Of a stretch of 63,064 nucleotides of DNA, positions 30,783 through 40,634 are shown piece after piece (position 1 is the first letter of the stretch; every line of letters begins with the position of its first letter). The position numbers and the translations under genes were made by a program. Source of the DNA: an uncultured Planctomycetales bacterium (GTDB lineage Bacteria > Omnitrophota > Gorgyraeia > Zapsychrales > Fredricksoniimonadaceae); assembly GCA_964487685.1 (NCBI GenBank), contig CAZASA010000003.1, positions 1 through 63,064 of the forward strand, in the 5' to 3' direction. The notes beneath the pieces are model-generated. The model searched no databases and was not told where the DNA came from. It was given only the letters and a program-made list of their open reading frames with translations.

Positions 30783-30839
30783 AAAAACCCCCTTCTGGTT
30801 TTCTAAATGGACTTGCTGTCCCCTAATAAATAATGATGA

Positions 30840-30889
30840 ATATTATCTTCTAAGCTTAGCATTGTCAAGATTTTTTGTGCGTGCACAAA
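30840..30889 (-). promoter_or_regulatory. glnA promoter with an adjacent 16-bp palindrome
   Basis: TTGACA (30868-30863), 17 nt, TAATAT (30845-30840); TTTGTGC-N2-GCACAAA at 30874-30889. Confidence 0.65.
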
Positions 30890-30901: not shown

Positions 30902-30960
30902 AAGAATGGGGCACAGGCCTCCCGCCGGCTGACCGACAGGGCTTCCTGTGCCCCATTCTT
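30902..30960. repeat. 16-bp perfect inverted repeat with a 27-nt loop, probable glnK terminator or REP
   Basis: AAGAATGGGGCACAGG / CCTGTGCCCCATTCTT; on the minus strand it is followed by TTTCC. Confidence 0.75.
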
Positions 30961-30970
30961 AAAACAACCA

Positions 30971-31312
30971 TCAGCCGATGGCTTTGGATCCTTCTTCACC
31001 GGTGCGAATGCGTATACATCTTGGCAGATCTACAACAAAGATCTTGCCGTCACCGATCTTACCGGTACGGGCCCCTTTGATGATGGCCTTGATGGTCGGT
31101 TCAACGAAATCCTCGTTGACCGCGATCTCCAATCGTACCTTGCGCAGTAAATTACCCGTTTCCTTGACGCCGCGGTAAAACTCGTCAACACCCACCTGAC
31201 GGCCATGGCCGAGTACTTCGGATACTGTGATCAAATTCACATTCACCGCATAGAGCTCCTGCTTAACATCTTCGAGCTTGTAGGGTTGAATTATGGCAAT
31301 GACTACTTTCAT
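30971..31312 (-). CDS. glnK: P-II nitrogen regulatory protein
   Basis: [13 protein letters not shown]-loop [22 protein letters not shown]; follows amtB. Confidence 0.95.
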
Positions 31313-31340: not shown

Positions 31341-32603
31341 TTAGTCTAAGATCGTATAAGCACGCTCATGATGCTGGCTAAGATCAATACCAATGATCTC
31401 ATCCTCAGCACTTGCCCGCATTCCAATGGTTTTATCGATGACTAGGCAGATCAGCCATGTGACAACAAACGAGAACACGGTTGTCAGCACGCAGGCCTTG
31501 ACTTGGATCATAAACTGGGCAGGATTCCCATCAAATACACCTGAACCAGCTGAGTTGATCGCTTTGACGGCGAATAATCCGGTGGCTAATGCGCCCCAAG
31601 TTCCGCCGCAAAAGTGCACCCCAAAGGCATCCAGCGTGTCATCATAACCTAATTTCGGTTTGACAAAGGCCACCATGCAGTAGCAGATAACGCTGACTAA
31701 GAAGCCGATCCATAATGAACCGCCAACATCCACGAAACCGGAAGCCGGTGTGATGGCCACTAAACCAGCGACAGCGCCAGAGCAAGCCCCGACGATGGTT
31801 GGTTTGCCGTTAAACAGCCATTCACAAGCAGCCCAGCTGATAGCCGCGGCAGCTGTTGCGGTATTGGTCACAACGAAAGCACTGGTTGCCAAAGCACCGG
31901 CAGTAACGGCAGAACCGGCGTTGAAACCAAACCAGCCGAACCACAATAAGGAAGCACCGATCATGACAAAAGGCACGTTATGCATACCTTGTTTATCCGT
32001 ACCGATGCGTTTCCCTAAATAAAGAGCTGTTGCAAGCCCTGCAATACCGGCATTCATGTGGACAACAGTACCACCGGCAAAGTCCAAGGCTCCCCATTGA
32101 TGTCCAGCCAGGCCGTCAGAGGCCCAGACCATGTGAGCAATAGGACAATACACAAAGGTCAACCATAACACGGTAAACCAGACCCATGCGGAAAATTTAA
32201 CCCGCTCAGCGAAAGAACCAATGACCAGTGCAGGTGTGATGACCGCGAACATACATTGAAAGATCATGTATGCTTGATGCGGAATAGTCCCGGCATACTC
32301 TGAGGCCGGCCCATTCGGATTCAGCCCCTTCATCATGGCCCAATCCAAGCCGCCGATATAGGGGGTCCAAAAACCCTTACTATGACCGAAGGCCAAACTA
32401 TACCCATAAACGACCCATAACACGCTGACTATGGCCAAGCACATAAAACATTGCATCAACATGCTTAGAACGTTTTTTCTCCTGACCATACCCCCGTAAA
32501 ATAGGGCCAGTCCAGGTGCCGTCATCGCCAAAACCAAGGCTGAAGACGTCAGGACCCATGCCGTATCTCCTGAGTTGAATACTGGTGCTGGTGTTGTTCC
32601 CAT
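31341..32603 (-). CDS. amtB: Ammonium transporter
   Basis: GDTAWVL, FYGGMVRRKN, DFAGGTVVH, WFGWFGFNAGS, DDTLDAFGVH; AGGAGG SD; no cleavable signal peptide. Confidence 0.97.
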   Translation of the reverse strand: MGTTPAPVFNSGDTAWVLTSSALVLAMTAPGLALFYGGMVRRKNVLSMLMQCFMCLAIVSVLWVVYGYSLAFGHSKGFWTPYIGGLDWAMMKGLNPNGPASEYAGTIPHQAYMIFQCMFAVITPALVIGSFAERVKFSAWVWFTVLWLTFVYCPIAHMVWASDGLAGHQWGALDFAGGTVVHMNAGIAGLATALYLGKRIGTDKQGMHNVPFVMIGASLLWFGWFGFNAGSAVTAGALATSAFVVTNTATAAAAISWAACEWLFNGKPTIVGACSGAVAGLVAITPASGFVDVGGSLWIGFLVSVICYCMVAFVKPKLGYDDTLDAFGVHFCGGTWGALATGLFAVKAINSAGSGVFDGNPAQFMIQVKACVLTTVFSFVVTWLICLVIDKTIGMRASAEDEIIGIDLSQHHERAYTILD

Positions 32604-32631
32604 TACGTGTACCCTCCTATTTTATTACTGG

Positions 32632-32754
32632 TTAAACAATATGTTCTCTTAAAGCCCAAAACAGCCCCATAGCTAATGCCAATTGGGCAAAAGCACAAAG
32701 TAAGGCCATGATTCCTGCGTTTTTGATCATTGGTGAGGATTGGGTAATTCTCAT
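32632..32754 (-). CDS. Putative 40-aa membrane peptide
   Basis: GGAGAGG SD 8 nt before the ATG; MRITQSSPMIKNAGIMALLCAFAQLALAMGLFWALREHIV with one TM-length stretch. Confidence 0.55.
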   Translation of the reverse strand: MRITQSSPMIKNAGIMALLCAFAQLALAMGLFWALREHIV

Positions 32755-32875
32755 ATGGTACCTCTCCGATCTGGACCCCGCTTGCCCCGCTATAAGCGGT
32801 GGCCGATGGGCCGACTGGCCAGGCGGGGCTTTGTCTTGTTGATCCTTTTTTGACCAGCCCATCGGCTGGCAGGCA

Positions 32876-32920
32876 ATAAAAAATCCGGTTCTCTATGCGT
32901 CATAGCATAAGAAACCGGAC
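32876..32920 (-). terminator. Intrinsic terminator 2 of the amtB leader
   Basis: 15-bp stem UCCGGUUUCUUAUGC/GCAUAGAGAACCGGA (1 mismatch, 2 GU), then UUUUUUAUU. Confidence 0.85.
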
Positions 32921-32932
32921 CTCATTGCCCAT

Positions 32933-32975
32933 AAAATAAAAAATCCCCTCAGTTTAAGTACTGCCCCAAGAGGAC
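32933..32975 (-). terminator. Intrinsic terminator 1 of the amtB leader
   Basis: GUCCUCU..CAGU/ACUG-AGGGGAU bulged stem, then UUUUUAUUUU. Confidence 0.65.
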
Positions 32976-33042
32976 TAACTTTGCCCGTGTAACTTTCCGG
33001 AACGTCAACGCTCCGAAAATATTAAATTCAAACTACGATGTA

Positions 33043-33071
33043 AATATATCCGCTAAACCAATATTTGTCAA
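33043..33071 (-). promoter_or_regulatory. Promoter of the amtB-glnK leader
   Basis: TTGACA (33071-33066), 17 nt, TATATT (33048-33043). Confidence 0.7.
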
Positions 33072-33083
33072 GAATTTTTTTGC

Positions 33084-33302
33084 TTACAGTTGGCCCCTGA
33101 CAATTTTTTCTGCCTTGATCCAGTCTTCCACGTCGTGGCCGTTCTTATAACCGCGTGCGACATAAAGCTCATACGCTTTTTGGGCAACCTTTTGATTGAA
33201 GTCCCCGTTAGTCTTACTTGTTTGCCCGGAAGGAGTTTCAACCCTGCTTTTTGGCACCCGAGAGGTGACCGTCGTTCTTTTAACACTGCTGGCTTGTATC
33301 AT
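33084..33302 (-). CDS. DUF2934-domain small protein
   Basis: VAQKAYELYVARGYKNGHDVEDWIKAE matches the family pattern. Confidence 0.8.
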   Translation of the reverse strand: MIQASSVKRTTVTSRVPKSRVETPSGQTSKTNGDFNQKVAQKAYELYVARGYKNGHDVEDWIKAEKIVRGQL

Positions 33303-33379
33303 AAGAACCTCTCCTTGCTGGATAAAAAATCCTCTCTTCCACTCGAAAAGAGGACAACATTGCCCTTGTAACTAAAATA

Positions 33380-33408
33380 AATATACCCCCTCAAAATAAT
33401 TTTGTCAA
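33380..33408 (-). promoter_or_regulatory. Promoter of the DUF2934 gene
   Basis: TTGACA-17 nt-TATATT. Confidence 0.55.
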
Positions 33409-33469: not shown

Positions 33470-35359
33470 ATGTGCGGAATCGGCGGCTATCGGTCAAAGC
33501 ACCCTGTGCCTTTGGAAAAAATGAGCTTGGTCCTGGCCCATCGCGGTCCTGATGACGCCGGCATCTACCGTCTGGGTGATGTTGCCTTACTGCACCGGCG
33601 ATTGTCGATCATCGACTTGAAAAACGGCCATCAGCCAATGCTAAGTCGTGATGAGCAAACCGTCCTTGTATTCAACGGAGAAATTTACAATTACCTGGAG
33701 CTCAAAAAAAACCTCCAGGCCCATGGCCTTGCCTTTAAGACCTCCTCGGACACTGAAGTATTATTGCGTGCCTACGAGCATTTTGGGACAGAATGCCTGG
33801 CGCATTTAAACGGAGATTTTGCTTTTGTTATTTTTGACCGCCGCCGCAACCTGCTTTTTGGCGCGCGCGACAGACTGGGGATCAGGCCTTTCTATTACAC
33901 GCAGAATGACAAAGGTTTTTTCTTTGCCTCGGAGATCAAGGCCTTATTGGAAACAGCCTGTGTCGATCGACGGGTCAATCCGATTGCCCTGGACCTATAT
34001 TTGACCTACCGTTATGTGCCCGGCCGCGGCACCATGTTCAAGAATATCTTTAAACTTCTGCCCGGCGAAGCTTTTACCCAATCCGGTGATGATGCGCCCC
34101 GGTTTTGGAAATATTGGGACCTGCCCCAAAATGAAGAGGCCCTGGGACCCGATGAGGCCTATCAACAATTTGAAGGGTTATTGACGGATTCAGTACGCTA
34201 TCGCCTGATCAGTGATGTGCCCTTAGGTGTCTATTTATCCGGCGGCATGGATTCAACAAGCGTGGCCGCGGTCATGGCTGGATTAAAGCAAGCTCCCATC
34301 CGGACCTATACGGCATGTTTTGATATGGACGTCGATGAAAGTGCCGCGGCAAGGCAGACAGCCAAACGCTTTTTATGTGACCATCATGAAGTAAGGATCA
34401 CCCCTGATTCCCTGGACTTTTTACCCCAGATCACCTGGCATATGGATGAACCTTTCGGTGACACCATTCTTGTCCCGAATTTTTGTTTAAGCAAGGAAGC
34501 CGGCCGTCATGTCAAAGTCGTACTTACCGGCGAAGGTGCCGATGAGGGGCAGATGGGTTATGTTCATCACGAATCCCTGGCGATTGGATTTTCCTTATCC
34601 CGAAGAGTTCCAAGGGGATTGCGGTGTGCATTGGGCCATCTTATACCATATATCCCGGTAAAATTATTAGACAGGGCTTTTAACTATCCCCATTCGATGG
34701 GAATGGCCGGTCGTAGACGATTGGCCGAACTGTTAAGCCTGCTCGACCGTCCGGGCCATGCTTATCAGCATTTTTGCTCCTTGTTCTCTGAAGATGAACG
34801 GGCCCGGTTGTACGGGCCCGGACTTCGGCATTGCCTCAACGAAGCTAAAAAGGCCTATCACGATCCCCTTGTCAATCGCCTGAACATCGCTAAAGATCCG
34901 TTACGCGCTATTTATATCCATGACTTTAAGCATTGGCTGCCGGATAATATCCTCAATAAGCAGGACCGGATGACCATGGCCCATTCCATCGAGGGCCGTG
35001 TTCCGTATTTAGACCATCGCCTGGTCGAGTTTGAAGCCAAACTACCCTGTGCTCTGAAAATAAAAGACGGTCAGGGGAAATATCTGCTGCGACGATTTTA
35101 TGAACAGCACCTGGGGGTCCCCAGCAAAAGAAAAAAAGCCTTCGTCATGCCCCTGCAAGGGGCTTATCATACTAAATACCAAAGCTTGGTAGACCGGTAT
35201 TTGAACGATACGGCCATTGATTCGGGCCTTTGGAATAAACAAGAGATCGCCTCCATCGTCCGAGAAGCAGACCGCTCGCCATTGTTAGGCCACAAAAAAG
35301 TGATGGCCTTGATGATGCTGCAGATATGGCACGAGTTGTTTAAACCGCAATGGGATTAA
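33470..35359 (+). CDS. asnB: Asparagine synthase (glutamine-hydrolysing)-family amidotransferase
   Basis: MCGI, HRGPDD, FNGEIYN, LSGGMDS, LTGEGADE, DRMTMAHSIEGRVPYLD; the substrate may not be aspartate. Confidence 0.9.
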   Translation: MCGIGGYRSKHPVPLEKMSLVLAHRGPDDAGIYRLGDVALLHRRLSIIDLKNGHQPMLSRDEQTVLVFNGEIYNYLELKKNLQAHGLAFKTSSDTEVLLRAYEHFGTECLAHLNGDFAFVIFDRRRNLLFGARDRLGIRPFYYTQNDKGFFFASEIKALLETACVDRRVNPIALDLYLTYRYVPGRGTMFKNIFKLLPGEAFTQSGDDAPRFWKYWDLPQNEEALGPDEAYQQFEGLLTDSVRYRLISDVPLGVYLSGGMDSTSVAAVMAGLKQAPIRTYTACFDMDVDESAAARQTAKRFLCDHHEVRITPDSLDFLPQITWHMDEPFGDTILVPNFCLSKEAGRHVKVVLTGEGADEGQMGYVHHESLAIGFSLSRRVPRGLRCALGHLIPYIPVKLLDRAFNYPHSMGMAGRRRLAELLSLLDRPGHAYQHFCSLFSEDERARLYGPGLRHCLNEAKKAYHDPLVNRLNIAKDPLRAIYIHDFKHWLPDNILNKQDRMTMAHSIEGRVPYLDHRLVEFEAKLPCALKIKDGQGKYLLRRFYEQHLGVPSKRKKAFVMPLQGAYHTKYQSLVDRYLNDTAIDSGLWNKQEIASIVREADRSPLLGHKKVMALMMLQIWHELFKPQWD

Positions 35360-35366
35360 ATATTTC

Positions 35367-36818
35367 ATGAGAGTACTTGTCTTAAACCCCATGACCCAAC
35401 AATCAAAGAACATCATCCGTGATGTGGTCTATGGATGTTGGTGTAACGGCAAGAGAATTGCCGGCGCAAGCACACCCCCGTTTATCCTGATGACGATAAC
35501 CTCCCTGCTAAGGCGTGAAGGTATCAACGCGGATTTTCTGGATGCCCAAGCCCAGCAGATACCGTCGGATAAAATGTCCCTGCGCATCAAGGACTATCAT
35601 GTGGTCATCATGTCAAGTTCAACGATGACCTTTCAGGAAGACGCCAATTATCTGCTCGGGTTGAAACGCTGCCGTGCCGGCTTGACCACCGTGCTTTTTG
35701 GTTCGCACCCCACCTTCATGCCCCGCTATTGCCTGGCCCATTCTGGCGTCGACATTATCATTAAACATGACCCTGAATGGATCATTAAAGAATTGATGCT
35801 TTTGATGGCCCAGGGAAAAGACTACAGCGGTCTTAAAGGTATTGGTTATAAAAATGATTCCGGAGTTCTGATCAACGCGGACCATGAGGACGCCGATGAC
35901 CTGGACCAATTGCCCTTTCCTGACGTGGACCTTTTACCCAAAGGCATTGAATATTTCAATCCCATTGTCAAACGCACTCCCTACATGACCACTTCCACCA
36001 GCCGCGGCTGTCCGGCCAAATGCACGTTCTGTACCGCTCCCACCTTTCACGGGACTTCAGTTCGCTTTCAATCCGCCCAACGTGTCATCAAAGAGATCGA
36101 ATATTATGTGAACAAAGGCATCAAGGAGATCTATTTCCGTGATGATACTTTTTTTATCAATAAAAAACGGGACCTGACTATTTTTAATCATATAATCACC
36201 CATAAAATAGACGTGTCCTGGATCGCCAATGCCCGTGTTGATATGCTCGATGAGGATACTCTTAAACATGCCCAGTTAGCAGGCTGTCATACGATCAAAT
36301 TCGGGATTGAATCCGGCCGCCAGGAGATCCTGGATGGGATGAAAAAAGGTTACCGCTTACAAGAGGCCAAAGATATTTTTGACTTGGCCCGACGCTACAA
36401 TGTCAAGACGCATGCGCACATCATGCTGGGCAATCCCGGCGACACTAAAGAGACCGTTGAAGAGACGATCCGCTTTGCCTTGCGCCTGGACCCAAGTACC
36501 GCCACCTTTGGCATATGCACGCCGTATCCGGGAACGCCGCTTTTTGAGATGGTCCGGGAAAAATATCCGCAGATCGGCGATGGCAGCAGCTCTGACTTGT
36601 CCCATCTGCACGTTTCGGGCCTGTTCAATGAACATTTCACGAGCCTTAAGAAAGAAGAGCTTCGCCGCATGGTCTTTTATGCCTATTGGAAATTCTATGT
36701 CCGGCCCGCTTACTGGATCAAGTCCCTCAAGACACAGGTCACAGGCCTTAATGATATTAAGCGTTTGTCGATCGCGGCAGCCAATATTTTTAATTTTATT
36801 GCGAGCAAGGAGAATTAA
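35367..36818 (+). CDS. Cobalamin-binding radical SAM protein
   Basis: N-terminal B12-binding-like region (FGSHPT), SRGCPAKCTFC, FGIESG. Confidence 0.9.
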   Translation: MRVLVLNPMTQQSKNIIRDVVYGCWCNGKRIAGASTPPFILMTITSLLRREGINADFLDAQAQQIPSDKMSLRIKDYHVVIMSSSTMTFQEDANYLLGLKRCRAGLTTVLFGSHPTFMPRYCLAHSGVDIIIKHDPEWIIKELMLLMAQGKDYSGLKGIGYKNDSGVLINADHEDADDLDQLPFPDVDLLPKGIEYFNPIVKRTPYMTTSTSRGCPAKCTFCTAPTFHGTSVRFQSAQRVIKEIEYYVNKGIKEIYFRDDTFFINKKRDLTIFNHIITHKIDVSWIANARVDMLDEDTLKHAQLAGCHTIKFGIESGRQEILDGMKKGYRLQEAKDIFDLARRYNVKTHAHIMLGNPGDTKETVEETIRFALRLDPSTATFGICTPYPGTPLFEMVREKYPQIGDGSSSDLSHLHVSGLFNEHFTSLKKEELRRMVFYAYWKFYVRPAYWIKSLKTQVTGLNDIKRLSIAAANIFNFIASKEN

Positions 36819-37684
36819 TGGAAAATTTCGCCCAAGTCTCCGTCGTTATCCCTGCCTACAATGAAGAAAAGACCATTAAACCGCTGGTGGAACGGATCTT
36901 CAAGCTCTCCCGGGACCTTGAGGTCATTGTCGTCTCCGATGGTTCGACAGACAGCACGGCCCTCTTGGCTCATGAAGCAGGTGCGATCGTCCTCGAGCAT
37001 CCTTACAATATCGGTAACGGGGCTTCGATCAAAAGCGGGGCATTACGCGCCACCCGTGCATGGATCGTGTTCATGGATGCAGACCTTCAACATCAACCCG
37101 AAGACATTCCCCAACTTTTGGCCTTCCTGCCGCAGTATGATATGGTTGTAGGCGCCCGTACCAGTCAATGTTCAACGGCCCGGCACCGGAACATCGGCAA
37201 TATCATCCTCAACCGCTTTGCCGAAAATATAAGTGGCTATAAGATCAAAGACCTGACCTCAGGTTTTAGGGCAGTCAAGCGCAATATCTTTTTAAAATTC
37301 ATCCATCTTTATCCCTTGCGCTATTCGTATCCTTCGACCAGCACCCTGGCCTTTTTTTGTTCGGGGTATTTTGTTAAATATGTCGATCTGCCGACCATTG
37401 TCCGCCGCAGCCACGCTAGAGGCTCGATCGACCCCTGGCGGGATGGATTAAGGTTCTTGCATATCATCCTGCGCATTGTGATGACCTTTAGCCCGCAAAA
37501 AATATTTAACCCTATCGCAGGACTGCTTTTGTTGGGAGGTATCGGGTTTTCGGTCTATCAATTGATATTTACCGGGGCCATCCGGAGCACCGTCGTCATC
37601 CTGTTGATCTCATCCTTGGTTGTTTTCTTAAATGGGGTGCTGGCAGATCAATTGGCACGTCTACGCAGAGACTTGAATAAATGA
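36818..37684 (+). CDS. GT2 glycosyltransferase with C-terminal TMs
   Basis: VVIPAYNE, DGSTD, MDADLQH, DLTSGFRA. Confidence 0.9.
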   Translation: MENFAQVSVVIPAYNEEKTIKPLVERIFKLSRDLEVIVVSDGSTDSTALLAHEAGAIVLEHPYNIGNGASIKSGALRATRAWIVFMDADLQHQPEDIPQLLAFLPQYDMVVGARTSQCSTARHRNIGNIILNRFAENISGYKIKDLTSGFRAVKRNIFLKFIHLYPLRYSYPSTSTLAFFCSGYFVKYVDLPTIVRRSHARGSIDPWRDGLRFLHIILRIVMTFSPQKIFNPIAGLLLLGGIGFSVYQLIFTGAIRSTVVILLISSLVVFLNGVLADQLARLRRDLNK

Positions 37685-39270
37685 GTTTTATACTTGTGAT
37701 CTTGGCCGCGGCGGCGGCACGTTTTTATCATCTTGCCGGGCATGGCCTGGGCGAATGCGATGCCTTGATCTACTCAAATAATTCAAAGCTATGGTTCTTT
37801 GACCATCATTTTGTCAATTATTGGGCAAAACCCGGCTACCATTTTTTAAGCTGCCTTACGATCGGCCTCCTGGGCTTTCATGACTACGATCTTTTATACC
37901 TGAACTCATTTCTCGACATCATCAATATCATTTTGCTTGTCCTGATCGGCTTTAAATTGGGCATGCGCCGGGTATTTGTTTTGTCTGCCGCTGTCATCTA
38001 CGCCTTTTTGCCTTTTATACTTCAGAATTGTGCCGACGGCTTGCCTCATTTGTCATCGACAACTTTTTTTCTGGGGGCATTCTATGTTTTCTTGATCTAC
38101 TATAATTCCCCTCGAAAACCCCAAGGGCTCCTTTTCTTGACCGGCGTTCTGATCGCTTTTGCCGGCAATGTACATCCCACTCTTTTAGTCGGCATGGCTT
38201 TCTTCGCGACGGTCTTGATCGTGATGGGCCTAAAAAAATCCGCGACCTTAAGCAGTCTGTTCATTTACGGTTCAGGGTGTCTCTGTGTTTTTATTGCCTT
38301 TGCTTTTCTGACGTCGGGAAGTCTTCTCGGACGGATTTTTCTCCATTACCAGCAATCGACCCAGGGGATGCAAGGCAATGTCCTTTCGAAATTAAGTTAC
38401 AGTTTCGCGGGACTACTATCAATAATTACTCTTCCCGTTGTCCTGCTTTTCTTAGGGGTATTTTGTTTTGCCTTGTTACGACCAGCTTCTTTCAAAACTC
38501 CTGGCAGCACCCGTCCGATCAACCTGTTTCTGCTGGGCGGGTATGTCCTTATTTTTTTATTGATCAATTGTTTTGTTGTCTTGGGCTGGCTATATCGCTT
38601 GTTGGTGCCGATCGTCCCCTTGATCATTGTTGGACTGGCGGCCTTGGCTGATCGTAGGACGGCTGATTTCCCTGAAGAATGGCGCGTGGCCCAAAAATTC
38701 CTTGGGCTCGCGATCATCATCGCAATTTTTAATATTTCCTGCCATTGGGATGTCATTGACAAAAGACCTGCCACTGTCTTTAGGCAGATGGCCGATGTTC
38801 TTGACCACCGGGTGGATGACCGCAACCGGTTATTGATATTGCCCAGCCATTTTTTTGCGCCGATGTATTATTTAGATGTTTATTTTGACAGGAATGATTT
38901 GTACCGGACCAAAGGGCCCTGGACACCGGAGATAAGTTTATTACAAACTTATCACATAAAATATATTGCGTTGTGTAAAAATCTGGCCGAGGATAAAAAT
39001 CCTTCGGATAAGGCGGAATTAGCGTTAATGTCCCAGTGGCTTGATCAGCGGAGAGCGAAATGTTTATTAAACAGCCCTCAGGTGAGCCTCTATGAGGTCC
39101 CGATCCATGACAACTGGGGCAACATCCCTGAAACAGCTGATGATCTTCCCTTTTTTGACCTGCAACGGGCTTCTAAAAACTGGCGGCTGCGGCACCCTTT
39201 TATTTCACCGGCTTCTGGTCCTCATGCCGGACACTCACCCAGTTCGAAGCTCAGCCATCAAGATAACTGA
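37681..39270 (+). CDS. Polytopic GT-C/ArnT-like glycosyltransferase candidate
   Basis: AARFYHL...ECD after TM1, ~11 TMs, soluble C-terminal domain. Confidence 0.65.
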   Translation: MSFILVILAAAAARFYHLAGHGLGECDALIYSNNSKLWFFDHHFVNYWAKPGYHFLSCLTIGLLGFHDYDLLYLNSFLDIINIILLVLIGFKLGMRRVFVLSAAVIYAFLPFILQNCADGLPHLSSTTFFLGAFYVFLIYYNSPRKPQGLLFLTGVLIAFAGNVHPTLLVGMAFFATVLIVMGLKKSATLSSLFIYGSGCLCVFIAFAFLTSGSLLGRIFLHYQQSTQGMQGNVLSKLSYSFAGLLSIITLPVVLLFLGVFCFALLRPASFKTPGSTRPINLFLLGGYVLIFLLINCFVVLGWLYRLLVPIVPLIIVGLAALADRRTADFPEEWRVAQKFLGLAIIIAIFNISCHWDVIDKRPATVFRQMADVLDHRVDDRNRLLILPSHFFAPMYYLDVYFDRNDLYRTKGPWTPEISLLQTYHIKYIALCKNLAEDKNPSDKAELALMSQWLDQRRAKCLLNSPQVSLYEVPIHDNWGNIPETADDLPFFDLQRASKNWRLRHPFISPASGPHAGHSPSSKLSHQDN

Positions 39271-40467
39271 TTCAGCAATGTCCTTCATCGACCGGCAGGT
39301 GTCCATGCTTTTTTTGTGGATCAATCGGAATGCGGCATCTTCGGAGAGATTGTTCATCTTCATCAGGATCCCCTTGGCCCGTTCCACAAGCTTGCGGGTT
39401 TCCAGGGCTTGCTTGGCTTCCACGGCTTGGTGCATCAACTTGGTATTCTCAACCGCGACCGCCGCCTGATTGGCGACGATCTGAAGGACGCCGACTTCCT
39501 GCTCTTCAAAATGGTGCGGCTGTTTGGTATACACGTTAATGACCCCGATGGCCTTGCCTTTGGCGATCATGGGCACCGCCACCATGGAAGTCAGGCCTTC
39601 TTTCAGGGCCAGGTCACGGTAAGCATATTTTTCATCTTTACTGACATCATAGACCATGGCCGGTTTTTTGGAGGTGATCACAGAACCGGTCAAACTGTTC
39701 TGTACCTTGATATTGGGTTTTAATTTATATTCCGAGCTTAACGATTGCGTGGCCTTGATCGAAAGCTCCAGGCCCTTATCATCCAGGAGCATGATGGAAC
39801 AAATTTTTGAATTTAGCATTTCAGCGGTGACCACCACGATCAAGTCCAGGATCTCTTCTAAATAATCCTCGCTCGTGATCGAACGGCTGACCTTGATCAA
39901 GGAATCGAATTGCAGGGCTTTCTTCTTTGTTTCCTCAAACAGCCTGGCATGTTCAATGATACCCCCGACCTGCTTGGCGATCATTTCGATCAAATTGACC
40001 GTCTCCGTCGAATAATCCTGCTGGCTTTTATGCTGGACATTAACGACCCCGATGGCCTTGCCTTTATAGATGACGGGTACTGACAAGAACGCTTCGTATC
40101 GGTCTTCAGGGAGCACATCGAAACTTTTAAAGCGCGGGTCGCGGTAGGCGCGGGCCTTGATAGCCACTGTCTTATTTTCCCGGGCCACCCAGCCGGTGAT
40201 CCCTTCCCCGGTCTTCAAGACCACATTGCCCAGTTCTTTTTTATGCGCGGTTTTGGACGCCATCAAAACCAAATTCTGTTTGCTCTCATCAAAAAGATAG
40301 ATAAAAACAGAGTCCGCGTCCGTCATTTCGGTGACGATCTTAACGATCAACTGCAGCGTCAGGTTCAAATCAAGCTCGGATGAGGCGATATCAACCACAT
40401 TGCGCAAGATCTGCAGCTCTTGGTTGGATGTCACACTTAGCTTTTTATTTTTGGTGCGTTCTGCCAT
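39235..40467 (-). CDS. GAF-GAF-ANTAR RNA-binding regulator
   Basis: Two GAF domains (EGITGWVA..FLSVPV..IGVVNVQ; AVPM..IGVINVY) plus ALETRKLVERAKGILM...SEDAAFRLIHKKSMD. Confidence 0.92.
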   Translation of the reverse strand: MAERTKNKKLSVTSNQELQILRNVVDIASSELDLNLTLQLIVKIVTEMTDADSVFIYLFDESKQNLVLMASKTAHKKELGNVVLKTGEGITGWVARENKTVAIKARAYRDPRFKSFDVLPEDRYEAFLSVPVIYKGKAIGVVNVQHKSQQDYSTETVNLIEMIAKQVGGIIEHARLFEETKKKALQFDSLIKVSRSITSEDYLEEILDLIVVVTAEMLNSKICSIMLLDDKGLELSIKATQSLSSEYKLKPNIKVQNSLTGSVITSKKPAMVYDVSKDEKYAYRDLALKEGLTSMVAVPMIAKGKAIGVINVYTKQPHHFEEQEVGVLQIVANQAAVAVENTKLMHQAVEAKQALETRKLVERAKGILMKMNNLSEDAAFRLIHKKSMDTCRSMKDIAESVILMAELRTG

Positions 40468-40572
40468 AAACTTACTATTTCAAATGTTGCCAGATATGTG
40501 CCGTTACCTTAATGCTTCTATTAAACAAACGGCCTGCCATAGGATTTCCTAAATCGTTATTGTGATTTGAAT

Positions 40573-40622
40573 ACAATACCATAGCACTATCCTCTTGACA
40601 ATATTACTTTTATTTCTATGAT
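40573..40622. promoter_or_regulatory. Overlapping divergent promoters (nuoJ + / ANTAR -)
   Basis: + strand TTGACA-16-TATGAT; - strand TTGTCA-17-TATTGT, sharing the -35 region. Confidence 0.55.
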
Positions 40623-40634
40623 TAGAGGACACGT

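Follow-up and report, generated by a model that had tools for sequence, protein, structure and literature searches.

The stretch of DNA analyzed here (63,064 nucleotides (nt) of contig CAZASA010000003.1, called the window below) belongs to Candidatus Omnitrophota and carries the ammonium transporter gene amtB. The leader of this gene holds two small hairpins in tandem, each sharing nucleotides with an intrinsic terminator, and a third module of the same kind lies before a neighboring gene for a small DUF2934 protein. Sequence comparisons suggest that these are probably three protein-dependent ANTAR-type transcription attenuators behind near-consensus sigma-70-type promoters, and that a GAF-GAF-ANTAR protein encoded in the same window acts on them as antiterminator.

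The amtB leader occupies the intergenic stretch between the DUF2934 gene (33302-33084) and amtB (32603-31341). Its elements are the following:

33043-33071, minus strand: sigma-70-type promoter of the amtB leader, TTGACA at 33071-33066, 17-nt spacer, TATATT at 33048-33043 (11 of 12 consensus matches)
32994-33019, minus strand: P1, candidate partner or "recruitment" hairpin, stem of 11 base pairs (bp), -13.5 kcal/mol
32972-32986, minus strand: P2, candidate antiterminator hairpin GGGC-AAAGUUA-GUCC, GGGCAAAGUUAGUCC, 7-nt loop with A1 and G4, 8-nt linker after P1
32938-32975, minus strand: T1, predicted first intrinsic terminator, stem 32975-32943, 13-nt loop, U6 at 32943-32938, -11.1 kcal/mol
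32917-32930, minus strand: P3, candidate antiterminator hairpin GGGC-AAUGAG-GUCC, GGGCAAUGAGGUCC, hexaloop with A1 and G4
32878-32920, minus strand: T2, predicted second intrinsic terminator, stem 32920-32883 of 15 bp, U6 at 32883-32878, -19.3 kcal/mol

The initial annotation of this DNA had proposed the promoter and the two hairpin-terminator modules, and every coordinate was confirmed on the minus strand. It had also described a hairpin GGAGC-GUUGAC-GUUCC at 33014-32999, which is present as the core of P1 but folds longer than stated, into an 11-bp stem at 33019-32994. The conserved helix of P1 spans 33018-32995, and its hexaloop GUUGAC (33009-33004) has a C-G closing pair. Folding of T1 and T2 agrees with the proposal that the GUCC of each hairpin forms the 5' arm of an intrinsic terminator: T1, a 10-bp stem including several G-U pairs, has the 3' arm of P2 as its 5' base, and T2 begins at the GUCC of P3 and is capped by the apical loop C-UAUGAC-G. 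Both terminators end GGAUUUUUU, and GGATTTTTTATT is present at 32946-32935 and 32886-32875. The 181-nt leader as a whole has a folding z of -5.25 relative to shuffles. No partner hairpin for P3 was found within 70 nt upstream in the window.

The two modules claimed in the initial annotation are thus both real, but a third one had been overlooked in front of the DUF2934 gene:

33380-33408, minus strand: sigma-70-type promoter of the DUF2934 leader, TTGACA, 17 nt, TATATT
33324-33365, minus strand: module 3, before the DUF2934 gene, hairpin 33365-33352, terminator (T3) 33355-33329, U6 at 33329-33324

The hairpin of module 3 is GGGC-AAUGUU-GUCC, again a hexaloop with A1 and G4, and T3, which was recovered by the consensus scan, has 11 bp followed by U6 (-15.1 kcal/mol) and a 5-nt loop at its apex. 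The hairpin starts about 8 nt past the predicted transcription start, which makes an upstream partner hairpin impossible. The pattern GGGCAANGN{2,3}GTCC has three matches in the 63-kb window, compared to 0.07 expected, and three were reached by none of 100 shuffles. Among the window leaders inspected, no module was found before carA, gltB, gltD, nadE, the glutamine amidotransferase (GATase) gene, purF or the ANTAR gene, whose leader region (40468-40634) is module-free.

When one of the small hairpins is forced to form, the GGAU beside the U-tract stays unpaired, as hairpin and terminator base (T1, T2 or T3) share the same GUCC. The small hairpins are worth -2.8 (P2 alone) to -3.4 kcal/mol, and the terminators T1, T2 and T3 -11.1, -19.3 and -15.1 kcal/mol, respectively. 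Given this difference, the default outcome is expected to be termination, and read-through would need a factor that holds the hairpin.

Relatives of the GAF-GAF-ANTAR protein were fetched from a species-level genome collection, giving 33 loci; labels such as L001 denote relatives' loci used for comparison. These 33 relatives (62-92% identity) are all from Candidatus Omnitrophota metagenome-assembled genomes (MAGs), some of which carry the wrong label "uncultured Planctomycetales". Covariation among orthologous amtB leaders had been named in the initial annotation as a check, and the tandem layout is indeed kept in about 20 of them, with compensatory changes in P1, T1 and T2. The whole P1-P2-T1-P3-T2 layout is common to 20 amtB leaders, and a promoter of the form TTGACA-17-TATAnT was found in 20 of 20 aligned relatives. 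The more distant amtB leaders of L024 and L025 each have a partner hairpin and two GG[G/A]C..GUCC hairpins. The layout of module 3 is repeated in L001, L002, L003, L005 and L006.

In P1, 98.9% pairing was found over 9 pairs, six of which show changes on both sides; its covariation score was reached by 0 of 500 shuffles, and slid registers were at most 55% paired. T2 behaves similarly, with 89.6% pairing over 15 pairs, changes on both sides in 12 and a score reached by 0 of 500 shuffles. The MAFFT alignment was too gappy around T1 for column-wise counts, and an anchored stem comparison was used there instead; pairing is kept over the 11 pairs compared, with UA/GC/CG and GU/GC/AU/UA alternation at positions 8-10. 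The four GGGC/GUCC pairs of P2 (over 20 leaders) and of P3 (over 18 leaders) are 100% paired and essentially invariant, with no changes on both sides, and here the evidence is conservation. One variant of P3 has GCUC in place of GUCC, where a swap of G-C and G-U pairs keeps the RNA pairing, and it is accompanied by a matching change of the terminator 3' arm to GAGC or GGGC.

The loop of P1 has G4 in 20 of 20 relatives and A1 in 16 of 20. Positions 1 and 6 of this hexaloop co-vary: 16 leaders have A...U or A...A, and four, among them the window, have G...C, which hints at a 1-6 interaction or a tetraloop alternative in P1. P2 carries a 7-nt loop in the window, and in each of the 20 relatives its loop measures 7-8 nt. 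Among relatives, T1 and module 2 are 2 to 104 nt apart, inserted repeats included, and this variability suggests that the two amtB modules act independently and not as one composite structure. Extra hairpins present between T1 and module 2 in L010, L011 and L014-L020 were considered as canonical partners of the P1 type and rejected, since their loops have 5-8 nt and do not carry A1 and G4 consistently. In three relatives (L013:11735-11810, L016:11363-11450, L019:8162-8260) the insert between T1 and module 2 is a repeated element (ATTGGTTCGACTCAC ... GACGAGTCGAAGGATT), apparently a miniature inverted-repeat transposable element, with a similar sequence downstream of glnK in L024.

The genes in question were identified in the window by Pfam, which agrees with the initial assignment of amtB, a glnK-type P-II gene and a GAF-GAF-ANTAR gene:

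31341-32603, minus strand: amtB, ammonium transporter, proposed regulated gene (PF00909, 405 bits)
30971-31312, minus strand: glnK-type P-II gene, proposed regulated gene (PF00543, 85.5 bits)
32632-32754, minus strand: hydrophobic small open reading frame (ORF) of 40 amino acids (aa), first gene of the proposed regulated transcript (tblastn conservation)
33084-33302, minus strand: DUF2934 small protein gene, proposed target of module 3 (Pfam; synteny)
39235-40467, minus strand: GAF-GAF-ANTAR one-component protein, proposed antiterminator (two GAF domains and ANTAR; synteny)

In nearly all of the 33 relatives the usual gene order is nuoL-K-J (divergent), then the ANTAR gene, (DUF2934), (small ORF), amtB, glnK, (glnA), the type III glutamine synthetase (GSIII) gene, the GATase gene and nadE, with the post-nuo genes on one strand. 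In 13 relatives, amtB and the ANTAR gene have the DUF2934 gene between them. In most of the 33 genomes the ANTAR gene is directly upstream of motif-bearing DUF2934, amtB or GSIII leaders on the same strand, and a strict module occurs within 900 nt downstream of it, on the same strand, in 22 of the 33 loci. The window is an exception: a 5.8-kb block at 33470-39270 on the plus strand separates the ANTAR gene from DUF2934. This block, which is missing from this position in 33 of 33 related loci, contains an asnB-like amidotransferase, a B12-binding radical SAM protein, a GT2 glycosyltransferase and a 529-aa protein without a Pfam match. The initial annotation was right that the ANTAR gene is "nearby" in the window, but it missed this insertion, which explains why a gene that is normally adjacent is only near here. 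The last ORF of the block is convergent with the ANTAR gene and shares 36 nt with its 3' end.

The ANTAR domain of the protein is well supported (PF03861, 75.2 bits compared to a cut-off of 27.3), aligns to Rv1626, EutV and NasR, and gives matches to the structures 1s8n, 6wsh and 4akk. Residues R340, K341, K345 and K347 of NasR matter for RNA binding (PMC7496416). The segment RKLVERAK aligns with RKLIEKAK of NasR, so that R340, K341 and K347 are kept and K345 is changed to R; a phenylalanine of the domain aligns to the W/F/Y position (NasR W362), and residues about 340-355, a helical linker, align to the linker of EutV and Rv1626. The best PDB matches of the N-terminal GAF domain (GAF1, residues 13-176) are the PtsP GAF structures 3ci6 (E = 3.3e-24) and 3trc (1.1e-15), and it also matches a NifA-like GAF of Nlh1 (E = 1.7e-08). 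In EI-Ntr (PtsP), the GAF domain binds glutamine (PMC4848567). GAF1 resembles the PtsP (EI-Ntr) and NifA-type GAF domains in sequence, and the output here is ANTAR, not a phosphoenolpyruvate phosphotransferase or an AAA+ activator. At E <= 1e-10, database relatives of the family number more than 6,000. Its annotation goes no further than "GAF domain-containing" or "GAF and PtsI domain" protein, the latter being the name given to relatives by the Joint Genome Institute (JGI). The GAF-ANTAR class was called uncharacterised in 2012 (PMC3369931), and we found no characterised member of the GAF-GAF-ANTAR family in the searchable literature.

A collection-wide scan for the hairpin plus GGAUUUUUU returned at least 120 stretches and 119 new loci, 39 of them from Omnitrophota; these counts are lower bounds. 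Among the matches listed, good terminator pairing was found in 33 of 44 from Omnitrophota compared to 8 of 80 elsewhere, and most matches outside Omnitrophota, having no terminator pairing, look like chance. In other Omnitrophota the genes after the modules are those for GSIII (at least about 14), amtB (at least 7, some behind a small ORF) and DUF2934. The matches listed further include NirB-type and ferredoxin-type nitrite reductases, nifH and carA, as well as a PyrK/GltD-like subunit and a porin. In the more distant L059 a complete module (L059:83-132) lies directly before the ANTAR orthologue (60% identity), which implies autoregulation in that genome. The link between the GAF-GAF-ANTAR gene and these leaders, already suggested in the initial annotation, draws on synteny, on the 22 of 33 loci with a strict module and on this L059 module.

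A full module is found before GSIII or glnA in L009, L010, L012, L013, L015, L016, L019 and L027-L031. The GSIII leader of the window itself (30783-30870) has a TTGACA-17-TAATAT promoter and a degenerate GGGGACAGCAAGUCC at 30809-30823 on the minus strand, with no terminator. It seems that the GSIII attenuator has been lost in the window.

To describe the hairpins independently of their loops, the window and the 33 protein-fetched loci were scanned for all GC-rich hairpins of 4 bp that have their 3' arm as a terminator base. This loop-unconstrained scan gave 55 matches, of which 43 have GGGC/GUCC-type stems. Hexaloops of the latter follow A(24/27)-[U/A]-U(22/27)-G(26/27)-A(22/27)-A, and the terminators are overlapped, in line with the original description of the hairpins as ANTAR-type. 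Comparing architectures over 80 curated modules, we found that hairpins with 7-8-nt loops have a hexaloop partner 7-9 nt upstream, C-G closed and of the form [A/G]..G.., in 17 of 18 cases. Hexaloop hairpins have such a partner in only 19 of 62, at variable distance. C-G-closed hexaloops in the upstream regions are A..G in 31 instances and G..G in nine, with any other combination occurring at most twice. The initial annotation had flagged its 7-nt loop and the partnerless module 2 as non-canonical; both features are present, and across these predicted modules both turn out to be rules of the family.

A C-A..G..-G hexaloop also caps the terminator in 16 of the 62 hexaloop modules, a clear enrichment, any other combination of positions 1 and 4 being found at most five times. 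Examples of this "nested" apex hexaloop are L001:11290, L002:2532, L003:5934, L059:83, L071:5437, L074:3905, L077, L082:339, L092:462 and L133. The nested two-hexaloop geometry differs from the canonical ANTAR substrate. As a partner for the single-hairpin modules of the window a nested apex is not convincing: the T2 apex UAUGAC has G4 only, and the T3 apex has 5 nt.

The loop signature, the terminator overlap, the nitrogen regulon and the linked ANTAR gene together point to ANTAR-mediated antitermination, and we infer from them the following course of events. By default, the nascent RNA would form the intrinsic terminators and polymerase would stop at T1, then at T2, before the small ORF-amtB-glnK transcript, and at T3 before DUF2934. 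When nitrogen is limiting, the presumably dimeric GAF-GAF-ANTAR protein would bind the C-G-closed A..G.. loop of the 4-bp GGGC/GUCC hairpin, and the held hairpin would sequester the GUCC needed to pair with GGAU at the U-tract. The terminator stem would thereby be shortened and uncoupled from the U-tract, leading to read-through. Module 1 would represent the canonical two-hairpin substrate, with the P1 hexaloop, the 8-nt linker and P2 with its 7-nt loop; P1 probably serves to bring the protein to P2, the poorer target with its enlarged loop, which is consistent with the successive-binding model (PMC8934654). Module 2 would be an autonomous single-hexaloop attenuator. The protein may thus act at two sites ahead of the small ORF-amtB-glnK transcript and at one ahead of DUF2934, and where read-through probabilities multiply in series one would expect less leak and a sharper response. 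As signal, the PtsP-like N-terminal GAF domain would probably sense glutamine and/or 2-oxoglutarate directly, with no kinase, such that the sensor would be inactivated by glutamine and/or activated by 2-oxoglutarate.

Several findings weigh against this interpretation. T1 is a weak terminator (-11 kcal/mol, a 13-nt loop and several G-U pairs), and the GGGC/GUCC stems never covary and have conservation as their sole support. The P1 loop of the window (GUUGAC) has G and not A at position 1. EutV antitermination needs both hairpins and a short linker (PMC3369931, PMC8934654), whereas modules 2 and 3 have a single hairpin. Rfam 15 gave no covariance-model match at gathering score over the whole window; at E <= 10, the region 32500-33400 gave S774 and MIR2670 at E of about 5, which is chance level. 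The proposed ligand comes from domain similarity alone, and for the second GAF domain no relative is informative. Finally, the regulator gene of the window is about 6 kb from its proposed targets.

This last point bears on whether the attenuators, though real, respond to another trans-acting factor encoded elsewhere, such as a GnfR-type REC-ANTAR protein or an unrelated RNA-binding protein, with the GAF-GAF-ANTAR protein doing something else. The closest characterised site is bound by the REC-ANTAR protein GnfR (PMC2995071), and a further ANTAR protein is possible, the window being 63 kb of the genome and having no ANTAR domain in it other than that of the GAF-GAF-ANTAR protein. On the other hand, most relatives, across 62-92% protein identity, have motif-bearing leaders immediately downstream of the GAF-GAF-ANTAR gene, and in L059 the ANTAR gene itself has a module in front. 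We consider such another factor unlikely.

Two further explanations do without an antiterminator protein altogether. Mutually exclusive folds are typical of riboswitches, and riboswitches for nitrogen metabolites exist, so that a cis-acting sensor could be imagined that decides between hairpin and terminator by itself, be it a riboswitch, an attenuator of the leader-peptide type or an element acting by temperature or pausing. Yet the conserved part is a 14-nt hairpin, lying in module 3 about 8 nt from the start, which is too small for an aptamer, and its roughly -3 kcal/mol stands against terminators of -11 to -19 kcal/mol. A leader ORF is absent, the window has no Rfam match, and the loop signature is of the ANTAR-target type, all of which makes a cis-acting sensor very improbable. 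It is scarcely credible that the conserved GGGCAnnGnnGTCC serves a repressor as a DNA operator just past the promoter, with the terminators being ordinary leaky ones or insulators. The motif is partly palindromic and can occupy positions of about +8 to +22 relative to consensus promoters, where operators are often placed, but the "palindrome" needs a G-U wobble (GGGC/GUCC), and the GCUC variant keeps RNA pairing and not DNA symmetry, with the terminator 3' arm changing to match. Moreover, every occurrence of the motif is on the transcribed strand and joined to a terminator base, and in the amtB leader the motif is 60-120 nt from the promoter. Attenuation relieved by the GAF-GAF-ANTAR protein accordingly remains our preferred explanation.

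The kind of system proposed here is already known, since ANTAR attenuators before amtB, P-II and glutamine synthetase genes have been published (PMC3369931, PMC2995071), and its novelty had been overrated in the initial annotation. The dual-hexaloop substrate with A1, G4 and terminator overlap was defined by Ramesh et al. 2012 (PMC3369931), who reported covariance hits before P-II, ammonium transporter, glutamine synthetase, GOGAT and nitrogenase genes, including at least 13 in six transcription units of Desulfotomaculum acetoxidans. The nitrogen regulons predicted there for D. acetoxidans and Pelobacter carbinolicus resemble ours in their target genes and in having several hits per unit; unlike ours, they are dual-hairpin, belong to Firmicutes and Deltaproteobacteria, and have no regulator architecture or signal assigned. 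Omnitrophota and single-hairpin modules were not described in that study.

The nearly identical site is that of Geobacter. GnfR binds CAGGCAANGGCGCC and antiterminates nifH, and the same site with terminators occurs in glnK and amtB leaders (Ueki & Lovley 2010, PMC2995071). Common to GnfR and the system proposed here are an ANTAR protein and nitrogen-limitation genes including amtB and glnK, and in both a short G/C stem with a loop AANGnn overlaps the 5' side of a terminator, the core of the GnfR site being nearly GGGCAANGnnGUCC. GnfR, however, is a phosphorylated REC-ANTAR protein under a histidine kinase, whereas two GAF domains are present here on the same polypeptide. The system of the window also differs in phylum, in its GGGC/GUCC stem (GGC/GCC for GnfR) and in having two serial attenuators in one leader.

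The EutV/EutW-dependent eut attenuators of Enterococcus faecalis likewise have short A1/G4 hairpins, a 3' hairpin sharing nucleotides with the terminator 5' arm and several attenuators along one locus, and the eut regulator is a dimeric ANTAR protein, as is proposed here. The 8-nt linker of module 1 falls within the 5-12 nt eut range. Differences from eut are the 7-nt P2 loop (7-8 nt in relatives), the single hairpins of modules 2 and 3, a proposed signal of nitrogen status rather than ethanolamine, and the lack of a kinase. A single hexaloop has since been described as the minimal ANTAR binding unit, with successive binding (Walshe et al. 2022, PMC8934654). NasR, which acts on the Klebsiella nasF leader, is one-component and kinase-independent like the protein studied here; its sensor domain controls RNA binding, it needs an A1 and G4 hexaloop, and the RNA-binding residues RKLxE[K/R]AK are shared (PMC7496416). 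The sensors of NasR, NasT and AmiR are NIT (nitrate), NasS and AmiC, respectively, and their targets are single operons; here the sensor is GAF-GAF and the target a general nitrogen regulon. What is new is the PtsP-like GAF-GAF sensor, the phylum, the single-hairpin attenuators at the transcript start and the rule linking an enlarged loop to a partner hairpin. In the literature searched, we found no paper on such a system in the phylum Omnitrophota and no characterisation of the GAF-ANTAR class later than 2012.

Other features surround these genes. The 40-aa ORF (MRITQSSPMIKNAGIMALLCAFAQLALAMGLFWALREHIV) lies between T2 and amtB with its own ribosome-binding site. It is found at the same place in nine relatives with 44-76% identity (tblastn), and more copies follow T2-type terminators in other Omnitrophota. 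No Pfam family was matched; the product could be a small AmtB-associated membrane peptide. Between T2 and this ORF, at 32765-32870 on the minus strand, there are about 100 nt of GC-rich, strongly structured sequence with CCCCGC...GCGGGG arms, which most relatives are without. Hairpins CCGCCAAAGGCGG like this stretch recur in intergenic regions of L011, L017 and L019, which suggests a repetitive extragenic palindromic (REP)-like repeat. Right after the glnK stop codon, at 30904-30958 on the minus strand, a long GC-rich hairpin (GAAUGGGGCACAGG ... CCUGUGCCCCAUUC) is followed by UUUCC, ahead of a separate GSIII promoter; it is likely an operon-end terminator or stabiliser. GSIII was identified in the window by Pfam, as were purF, carAB, gltBD, nadE and nuo genes elsewhere in it. 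Downstream of the amtB operon, a long same-strand run of glutamine- and nitrogen-linked genes covers 563-30782 on the minus strand (purF, carB, carA, gltD, gltB, nadE, class-I GATase and GSIII), and the module is absent from all of their leaders in the window.

GAF-ANTAR and PAS-ANTAR proteins form a large class. It becomes directly testable in vitro with the present case, where target RNA and regulon are clear and a ligand is plausible, and the near-consensus sigma-70-type promoters suggest that E. coli RNA polymerase may be usable. Dual- and single-hairpin attenuators lie next to each other in one leader and are apparently served by one protein, which offers a natural way to test the recently revised ANTAR model of successive binding with one hexaloop as the smallest unit. 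The module motif also offers a practical marker for annotating nitrogen-regulated genes in Omnitrophota MAGs.

A wider proposal, which we put forward as a tentative possibility, is that nitrogen assimilation across the phylum is controlled mainly after initiation by one kinase-independent, glutamine/2-oxoglutarate-sensing GAF-GAF-ANTAR protein, acting via single-hexaloop attenuators on constitutive sigma-70 promoters and replacing control of the NtrBC/sigma-54, GlnR or NtcA type. If true, amtB-glnK, GSIII, glnA, nitrite reductases, nifH and carA would be under this control, and these would be the first case of single-hairpin ANTAR antitermination, with three interchangeable architectures: a recruitment hairpin with an enlarged-loop hairpin, a lone hexaloop, and a hexaloop with a nested apex hexaloop. 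The modules described here provide a first view of the regulation of nitrogen assimilation in an uncultivated, widespread phylum.

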